The notes beneath the pieces are model-generated. The model was not told where the DNA came from. It made no database searches and was given only the letters and a program-made list of their open reading frames with translations. A stretch of DNA of 63,757 nt, filler included, from Collodictyon triciliatum (Eukaryota): assembly GCA_043381765.1 (NCBI GenBank). It is 42 parts of 42 records of this genome, joined end to end, with 100 filler letters (N's around TTAATTAATTAA, not from the genome) between each part and the next. Parts side by side here need not be neighbours in the genome. Positions count along the whole stretch, not along the records: positions 42,639 to 44,057 come from JBHJMP010011140.1; 41 more parts are not named here. One strand, written 5' to 3'. A program made the position numbers and the translations under genes. Shown one piece after another: positions 43,400 to 44,057 of this stretch (position 1 is its first letter; the number at the start of each line of letters is the position of its first letter).

Positions 43400-44057
43400 T
43401 TTTTAAATTCTTCCTTTCAATTTTGTTCAAGATGGTGGAGATGTTGGCTTTGGTTCGCTAATCATCGTTTGCATGGACGCTACTTGGTGGCCGGGTGGCG
43501 GAGAAATAGTCGGTAATCAGCAATTGCATCTTGCGGTTTGTTCTGTAGCCTGGGTCTTGTGCTTGCATGAGAGAGACAAATCGAAGTTTAATATCCTTCT
43601 CAGCCTCTTTCCACATGTCTCTTCTCACGGGGTCTGAGTAGTAGAGAACGTGCAGGTGGCGAAGAAAACTATTGAGGAAAGAGATTTGTATGATTTCATT
43701 AAGCCTGTTATCAGGAATAAGTGGCTGGTTGTTGAGTCTTACTTTGCATGAGTATATGTGCGCTATCCACATAGTCCATAACAAATGGCCTCGCGTCACT
43801 GCCCAGAATGTTTTTGCCTCTGGACGCAGCTGTTGCAGAGGCCCAAATATCGCCTGGATTGGGCCAACAGCCGCAGCTGTCTTGAGTATCAGTCGAAGAA
43901 TCTCGCCGGCTGTTTCGCGCAGGTTTTGAGCGAAGGGACATTGCACAAGTGTGTGCTCAATGGATTCATCACCGTTGCTGCAAAGTGTGCATTGTTGGGA
44001 GACTTTGCCAGCTTTTGCCGCGCGTGTGCCTATCCATAGCTCCCTATTGGTGATATT
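43400..44057 (-). mobile_element. LINE family A 3' end: CCHC zinc finger, ORF2 C-terminus, short 3' UTR, A-tail
   Basis: CTLC..DESIEHTLVQC; ORF 43458-43946; 3' UTR ...ccaccatcttgaacaaaattgaaaggaagaat then an A-run. Confidence 0.88.

Follow-up and report, generated by a model that had tools for sequence, protein, structure and literature searches.

The ORF2 protein (ORF2p) of an L1-like retrotransposon in the freshwater eukaryote Collodictyon triciliatum ends in a tail that carries a canonical PIP box of the TD type, and we infer from sequence comparison and structural modelling that this tail is probably a peptide that docks on PCNA with high affinity, maintained by selection in the active lineages of this LINE group and tethering ORF2p to the sliding clamp. 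The initial annotation of this DNA had proposed both that the protein docks on PCNA and that it is degraded there. The docking part of that proposal stands on indirect grounds, namely the register of the motif, its synonymous codons and the predicted lack of structure in the tail, while a degron conserved among the LINE families does not.

Composition of the window

The window, which is the whole stretch of DNA analyzed here, comprises 63,757 bases. It strings together 42 short contigs, each near 1.4 kb in length, from an assembly of draft or metagenomic origin; they are arranged in order of falling length and separated by spacers of the form N44+TTAATTAATTAA+N44. As it consists of separate contigs that have been joined, nothing can be inferred from the adjacency of one piece to another. 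The G+C content lies between 23 and 43% in 2-kb windows, and the open reading frames are eukaryotic in type, with WD40, LRR, GATA plus zf-CW, RCC1 and ephrin-receptor-like cysteine repeats among them; among 75 ORFs of the window that were scanned, none matched a PCNA family. The ephrin-receptor-like repeats, about ten in tandem (PF07699, 4.8e-86), fill a 474-codon frame at 12212-13633 on the plus strand that is open at both contig ends. A further frame of 392 codons on the minus strand at 9453-10631 matches DUF5906 (1.2e-12) and VapE-like proteins (5.6e-06), and its product looks like a P-loop protein of the D5/primase-helicase type, a kind known from large DNA viruses and from certain integrated elements. 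The contig that bears the ORF2 tail ends, at 42639-42735, in a long (ATT)n/(AAT)n microsatellite that lies approximately 670 bp past the 3' end of the LINE and is flank rather than element. The coordinates of the features discussed below are collected in Table 1.

Table 1. Features of the ORF2 tail, of its family-B counterpart and of related element copies, in window coordinates.
Feature	Position	Strand	Evidence
Contig bearing the ORF2 tail	42639..44057	.	N-run map and spacer sequence; neighbouring contigs unrelated
ORF2 C-terminal domain, last 199 codons, cut by contig end	43461..44057	-	Open frame, zf-RVT, AlphaFold2, VIA-align
Zinc knuckle C-x2-C-x8-H-x4-C (C23, C26, H35, C40)	43938..43991	-	Invariant in alignment A2; zf-RVT
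Predicted unstructured tail, residues 175-199	43461..43535	-	pLDDT <50, coil (AlphaFold2)
PIP box QLLITDYF, including the TD pair	43503..43526	-	Translation, six-frame scan, alignment with four other families
Arg at +4 (R189, codon CGG), completing the degron pattern	43491..43493	-	Translation
Stop codon TAG	43458..43460	-	Translation
3' UTR, ~51 nt, ending ...GAAAGGAAGAAT	43407..43457	-	Ends of public-run matches; truncated copies
A-tail remnant, short (TTAAAAAA)	43399..43406	-	Sequence and public-run contigs
5'-truncated copy, last ~49 nt of 3' UTR and A-rich tail	23846-23938	-	GAAGAAT end, then A-run
Second tail-only copy, ~42 nt of 3' UTR	56469-56520	-	3'-tip match; ends GAAGAAT + A10
Family-B ORF2 C-terminal end on another contig, ending ...PPDQLAITDFFPVLPSPR and stop	46712..47017	+	36% identity over 75 shared residues
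Family-B PIP box QLAITDFF, TD kept, +4 = Pro	46970..46993	+	Translation, six-frame scan, codon comparison

A TD-type PIP box near the ORF2 stop codon

The minus-strand translation over 43440-43946 reads ...GYRTNRKMQLLITDYFSATRPPSSVHANDD up to the stop and places the residues Q-L-L-I-T-D-Y-F-S-A-T-R at 43491-43526, 10 residues upstream of the ORF2 stop, with Q178 encoded at 43524-43526 and F185 at 43503-43505. Only the last 199 codons of ORF2 are present, as the contig ends at 44057 within the reading frame. The octapeptide QLLITDYF has the features of a canonical PIP box: glutamine at position 1, an aliphatic residue (L/I/M/V) at position 4 and F/Y at positions 7 and 8. The signature published for the PIP degron, in the part of the source available to us, is Q/N-x-x-psi-T-D-theta-theta-x-x-x-R/K (PMC3973308), in agreement with the definition used in the initial annotation (TD at positions 5-6 and a basic residue at +4). 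The window copy fits this signature exactly, with TD at 5-6 and Arg189 at +4; the earlier claim of a PIP box with the full degron pattern at the end of ORF2 is thus borne out, and the annotated interval spans exactly the glutamine to the +4 arginine.

The retrotransposon and its 3' end

The element that encodes this tail appears from its sequence features to be a non-LTR retrotransposon of an L1-like, poly(A)-ended type, inserting by target-primed reverse transcription, an assignment founded on reverse transcriptase (RT) scores, the zf-RVT match, the A-tailed 3' end, 5' truncation and a 9-bp target duplication. The contig with the ORF2 tail itself ends before the RT; a piece of the related family B at 50234-51430 matches RVT_1 at 1.1e-32, and the family-B RT scores best against human L1 ORF2p (3e-29 to 1.3e-28), with R2 proteins at 2.2e-14 and weaker. 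On a separate contig, at 21429-22163, lies an Exo_endo_phos fragment (1.2e-11) that may or may not come from the same LINE family.

Contigs from four public runs locate the end of the element. Their match to the stretch ends at 43399-43407, and their loose ends are T-runs; the 3' end of the element therefore reads ...GAAAGGAAGAAT on the minus strand, followed by an A-tail. Depth is zero in all four runs over 43250-43384, so that the runs share the LINE repeat and not the locus; half of the stretch was found in no public run (best share 0.23). The 3' tip of the element recurs in the window at 23875-23894 and 56473-56492, giving three matches against 0.08 expected. The first of these belongs to a 5'-truncated copy whose body, 23881-23929, is flanked on both sides by TGACTCGGT, a direct repeat of 9 bp representing a target-site duplication. 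Taken together, positions 43399-44057 on the minus strand would represent the 3' end of a single copy of this L1-like element.

Several other LINE fragments are scattered over the window. They comprise the endonuclease piece at 21429-22163 (minus strand), a post-RT piece at 47196-47825 (plus strand), a family-B piece running from the RT to the zinc knuckle at 50234-51646 (plus strand), interrupted by one in-frame stop and carrying an internal deletion, and two short pieces of families A/B that run into contig ends, at 24166-24303 and 34837-34926 (both plus strand). In the metatranscriptome run X16, three contigs match the LINE part at at least 85% identity, one of them over 43636-44057 with 16 differences; these matches may reflect LINE expression or DNA carry-over.

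Predicted structure of the C-terminal domain

The 199-residue piece matches the Pfam family zf-RVT with an E-value of 2e-06, scoring 28.8 bits where the cut-off is 27.5. An AlphaFold2 model built on a 12-row alignment has a mean pLDDT of 74.6 and shows a helical domain at residues ~20-170, with block means of 78-93. The PIP motif falls in the low-confidence coil predicted after this domain, in a context where PIP boxes are usually found; the low pLDDT of residues 175-199 may partly reflect the shallowness of the 12-row alignment. ORF2p would thus end in a helical zinc-knuckle domain followed by a predicted unstructured tail of about 25 residues bearing a canonical TD-type PIP box.

Comparison of the model with 48,161 chains by VIA-align placed human ORF2p (9hdo_A, residues 1065-1268) at rank 4 with an rmsd of 4.2 and a Z-score of 7.6, a value of a size that helical models often attain by chance; with 155 residues, this was the longest alignment of the list. 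Together with the zf-RVT match, it is suggestive of the modelled helical zinc-knuckle domain being the counterpart of the human ORF2p C-terminal domain (CTD). A Foldseek search of the PDB with the AlphaFold2 model returned nothing at E <= 0.001. Searches of the PDB by sequence gave no matches for the 199-residue tail or for the wrist-region pieces from 47196-47825 and P0022, and for the 32-residue tail the sole match was a TetR regulator at E 1.8, a chance hit. In the ESM Atlas, only zf-RVT clusters were matched.

Relatives of the ORF2 tail

A full search with HMMER through 1.84 billion representative proteins yielded 12 matches at E <= 0.001; word-indexed searches gave 4 and 5 matches, and cluster look-ups contributed a further 7 members. 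Sixteen tails that reach the motif column were counted (Table 2). They fall into five diverged families and are not 16 independent samples, and all of the relatives are fragments on contigs of at most 1.8 kb, with no intact full-length element among them. Excluded from the count were P0002, P0003, P0007, P0009 and P0013, which end before the tail; P0022, which has a frameshift upstream of the tail; P0011 and P0012, which are repeat proteins with weak matches; and P0014 (E 6.7e-04), which aligns to residues 4-125 only and whose own end is without a PIP box. A search for longer proteins gave 704 candidates, none of them at E <= 0.001, and no full-length ORF2 was recovered. Among metagenome contigs, 107 stretches fit the peptide patterns of alignment A2, and none of these is a relative, which points to this LINE family being absent from the collection.

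Table 2. PIP column and following residues of the 16 ORF2 tails, by family.
Family (identity to window copy)	Tail	PIP column	Next four residues	Remark
A (73-100%)	Window copy	QLLITDYF	SATR	
A	P0005	QFLITD-F	SATR	One aromatic residue lost
A	P0010	QFLITDYF	SATL	
A	P0017	QFLITNYF	SATR	
B (~35%)	Window, 46970	QLAITDFF	PVLP	
B	P0015	QLAITDFF	PVLT	
B	P0016	QLAITDFF	PVLP	
B	P0018, P0020, P0021	QLAITDFF	PVLA	
B	P0019	QLAVTDFF	PALP	
C (51%)	P0001	QSVITNFF	SIIP	
D (39%)	P0006	QTAITDFF	AVLH	
D	P0023	QTAITDYF	AVLH	
D	P0008	QTLLLISF	QCYN	Degenerate
E (34-35%)	P0004	QYFNTPFF	YYSK	N at position 4, P at 6; not canonical

Conservation of the motif and chance expectation

The initial annotation had called for an alignment of ORF2 C-termini, and in the fragments that could be aligned the core of the PIP box is conserved: it is canonical in 13 of the 16 tails, in register at the extreme C-terminus, in four of the five families. 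Q1 and F8 are present in all 16, T5 in 15 and D6 in 12; TN stands in place of TD in P0001 and P0017, and three families out of five have kept the TD pair. When one tail per family is aligned, nothing is invariant over the 28 columns that follow W149, and then Q178, T182, F185 and P191 are invariant. An alignment of the last 85 residues of six tails likewise has invariant columns at W35, Q64, I67, T68 and F71 only. The motif persists between families that are just 32-51% identical. The proline among the invariant positions lies six residues past the PIP box (43485-43487, minus strand); it is found in all five families, with the residues in between free to vary, and it may belong to the docking peptide.

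The codons point to the level at which the motif is kept. Families A and B share five residues of the motif, and at each the codons differ synonymously (CAA/CAG, ATT/ATC, ACC/ACT, GAC/GAT and TTC/TTT). Among the 40 listed of 52 rows from the four public runs, the only differences within the motif are 43506 A>G, which leaves the tyrosine unchanged, and 43521 C>G, which gives L179F at a free position of the motif. Because the codons of families A and B differ, and the changes in the public runs are silent or at a free position, we take selection on the PIP motif to act on the peptide and not on the RNA. We considered and rejected the possibility that a cis-element in the RNA or DNA accounts for the conservation: third bases differ at five of five codons between families A and B, and their 3' UTRs do not align.

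In order to set these matches against expectation from composition, the motif was scanned in the six reading frames of each of the 42 pieces, 119,146 codons in total. The plain PIP box was seen 13 times against 13.3 expected, which is the chance level, so that a bare match carries no meaning here. With the TD pair added, two boxes were seen against 0.017 expected, an excess of approximately 100-fold, and both are the LINE boxes of Table 1, each at an ORF2 C-terminus; the full degron pattern occurred once against 0.0023 expected. That the tail is a chance resemblance, or has been conserved passively without function, is therefore hardly credible. The chance-level frequency of the plain motif and the shared ancestry of copies within a family would suit such a reading; the excess of TD-type boxes at homologous ORF2 ends, and the retention of the motif with differing codons across this degree of divergence, behind a stretch of columns that has kept nothing invariant, speak against it.

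The +4 residue and the degron

Conservation is different at the residue that would turn a TD-type PIP box into a degron. A lysine or arginine occupies +4 in four of the 16 tails, namely the window copy, P0005 (in the aligned column), P0017 and P0004. The arginine is shared by three of the four family-A tails, P0010 having leucine; it is not private to the window copy, so that this refuting outcome named in the initial annotation does not arise. Outside family A, the residue is P, T, P, A, P, A and A in family B (none of seven basic), proline in the single family-C tail and non-basic in all three family-D tails (histidine in two). The complete pattern of canonical PIP box, TD and K/R is found in one tail of 16, that of the window copy. 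By these alignments the +4 arginine is a family-A trait that is not conserved across families, and the degron, a pattern match within family A, is not supported as a conserved property. Destruction on PCNA is thus possible for family A, but it would not be what selection has kept, given that the arginine is not a conserved feature.

A working PIP degron would mean that family-A ORF2p docks on DNA-loaded PCNA and is there ubiquitinated by CRL4-Cdt2 and destroyed, limiting the activity of the element. We consider this unlikely, though it has several points in its favour. Besides the exact match of the window copy to the full published signature and the presence of the arginine in most family-A tails, the Arg codon shows no differences among the 40 listed of 52 rows from the four public runs, and the TD pair is reported, in the portion of the source at hand, to be nearly specific to CRL4-Cdt2 substrates (PMC3973308). 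Weighing against it, families B, C and D keep the PIP box with a non-basic +4, and family A itself is uneven, with leucine at +4 in P0010, TN in P0017 and one aromatic residue missing from P0005. A single basic residue follows the box, where Cdt1 is described as having the run RRR (PMC3973308), and a selective reason for self-destruction is not evident. Set beside the CRL4-Cdt2 degrons of Cdt1, p21 and Set8, the window copy is an exact match, and the TD pair recurs in most of the LINE families; unlike them, the LINE tails of families B, C and D lack the basic +4, the basic residue is single and not part of a cluster, and the carrier is a retrotransposon enzyme and not a cell-cycle regulator.

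The +4 position might also record a conflict with the host, a reading that we regard as improbable to a still greater degree. CRL4-Cdt2 would destroy proteins docked tightly on loaded PCNA by a TD-type PIP box with a basic residue; the LINEs would keep the TD box and escape through a non-basic +4, the basic residue having been replaced by Pro, Ala or Thr in families B and C, and family A would be left susceptible or self-limited.

Comparison with human L1 ORF2p and with transposases

Docking on PCNA, the reading that we favour, finds its closest parallel in human L1, where binding of PCNA is reported to be needed for retrotransposition (PMC10830420, PMC7617806). The initial annotation took human ORF2p to bind PCNA through an internal PIP box, a premise that has become dated: a 2025 study, in the sections available to us, moves the contact from the internal PIP box (407-415) to a 'PUB' motif of helix plus loop in the wrist domain (PMC7617806), and the PIP-box helix (404-419) is described as packing against the palm and fingers (PMC10830420). 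The human contact is thus internal and disputed between these two sites. Both systems would tie an L1-type ORF2 enzyme to the sliding clamp, on our reading of the Collodictyon tail. They differ at the C-terminus. In Collodictyon, the CTD is followed by a tail, predicted to be unstructured, with a canonical TD-type PIP box; human ORF2p stops shortly after its aligned CTD (1268 of 1275), whereas the Collodictyon ORF2 runs on for about 20 more residues, and these bear the PIP box. The Collodictyon protein would accordingly reach PCNA by means of a simple linear motif at its C-terminus rather than through an internal surface as in human L1.

The history of the human helix also lends some weight to a different role for the Collodictyon motif, in which it would serve a non-PCNA partner of FF-containing peptides or pack on another domain of ORF2p. 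PIP-like motifs also bind other proteins, Rev1 and Mlh1 for example. The AlphaFold2 model covers the last 199 residues, a span in which packing of the tail on the RT could not appear. This role is nevertheless rather improbable, a shade more so than a working degron, as the motif is fully canonical including the TD pair, terminal and placed in a low-confidence coil, unlike the internal human helix, and the positions that are conserved are exactly those that define PCNA binding.

Clamp-binding motifs have been described as convergent features of transposases, among them Drosophila pogo, human Tigger and Arabidopsis Lemi1, and motifs for the beta clamp in bacterial transposases of Tn7, IS200/IS605 and IS1634, in the part of the source available (PMC5371812). 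These proteins resemble the Collodictyon ORF2p in being mobile-element enzymes with a short consensus clamp-binding peptide; theirs are cut-and-paste transposases, whereas the present protein is a LINE reverse transcriptase whose motif carries the high-affinity TD pair. A literature search by titles and abstract openings, with most subscription journals outside its reach, found no report of a LINE protein with a PIP box at its C-terminus or with a PIP degron.

If the tail does dock as we propose, it would tether ORF2p to PCNA at replication forks or on the primer-template of target-primed reverse transcription. Clamp docking would then be a general need of L1-like elements, met differently by evolution, and an independent L1-like lineage with a terminal PIP box would offer a simple, peptide-level system for the role of PCNA in target-primed reverse transcription.
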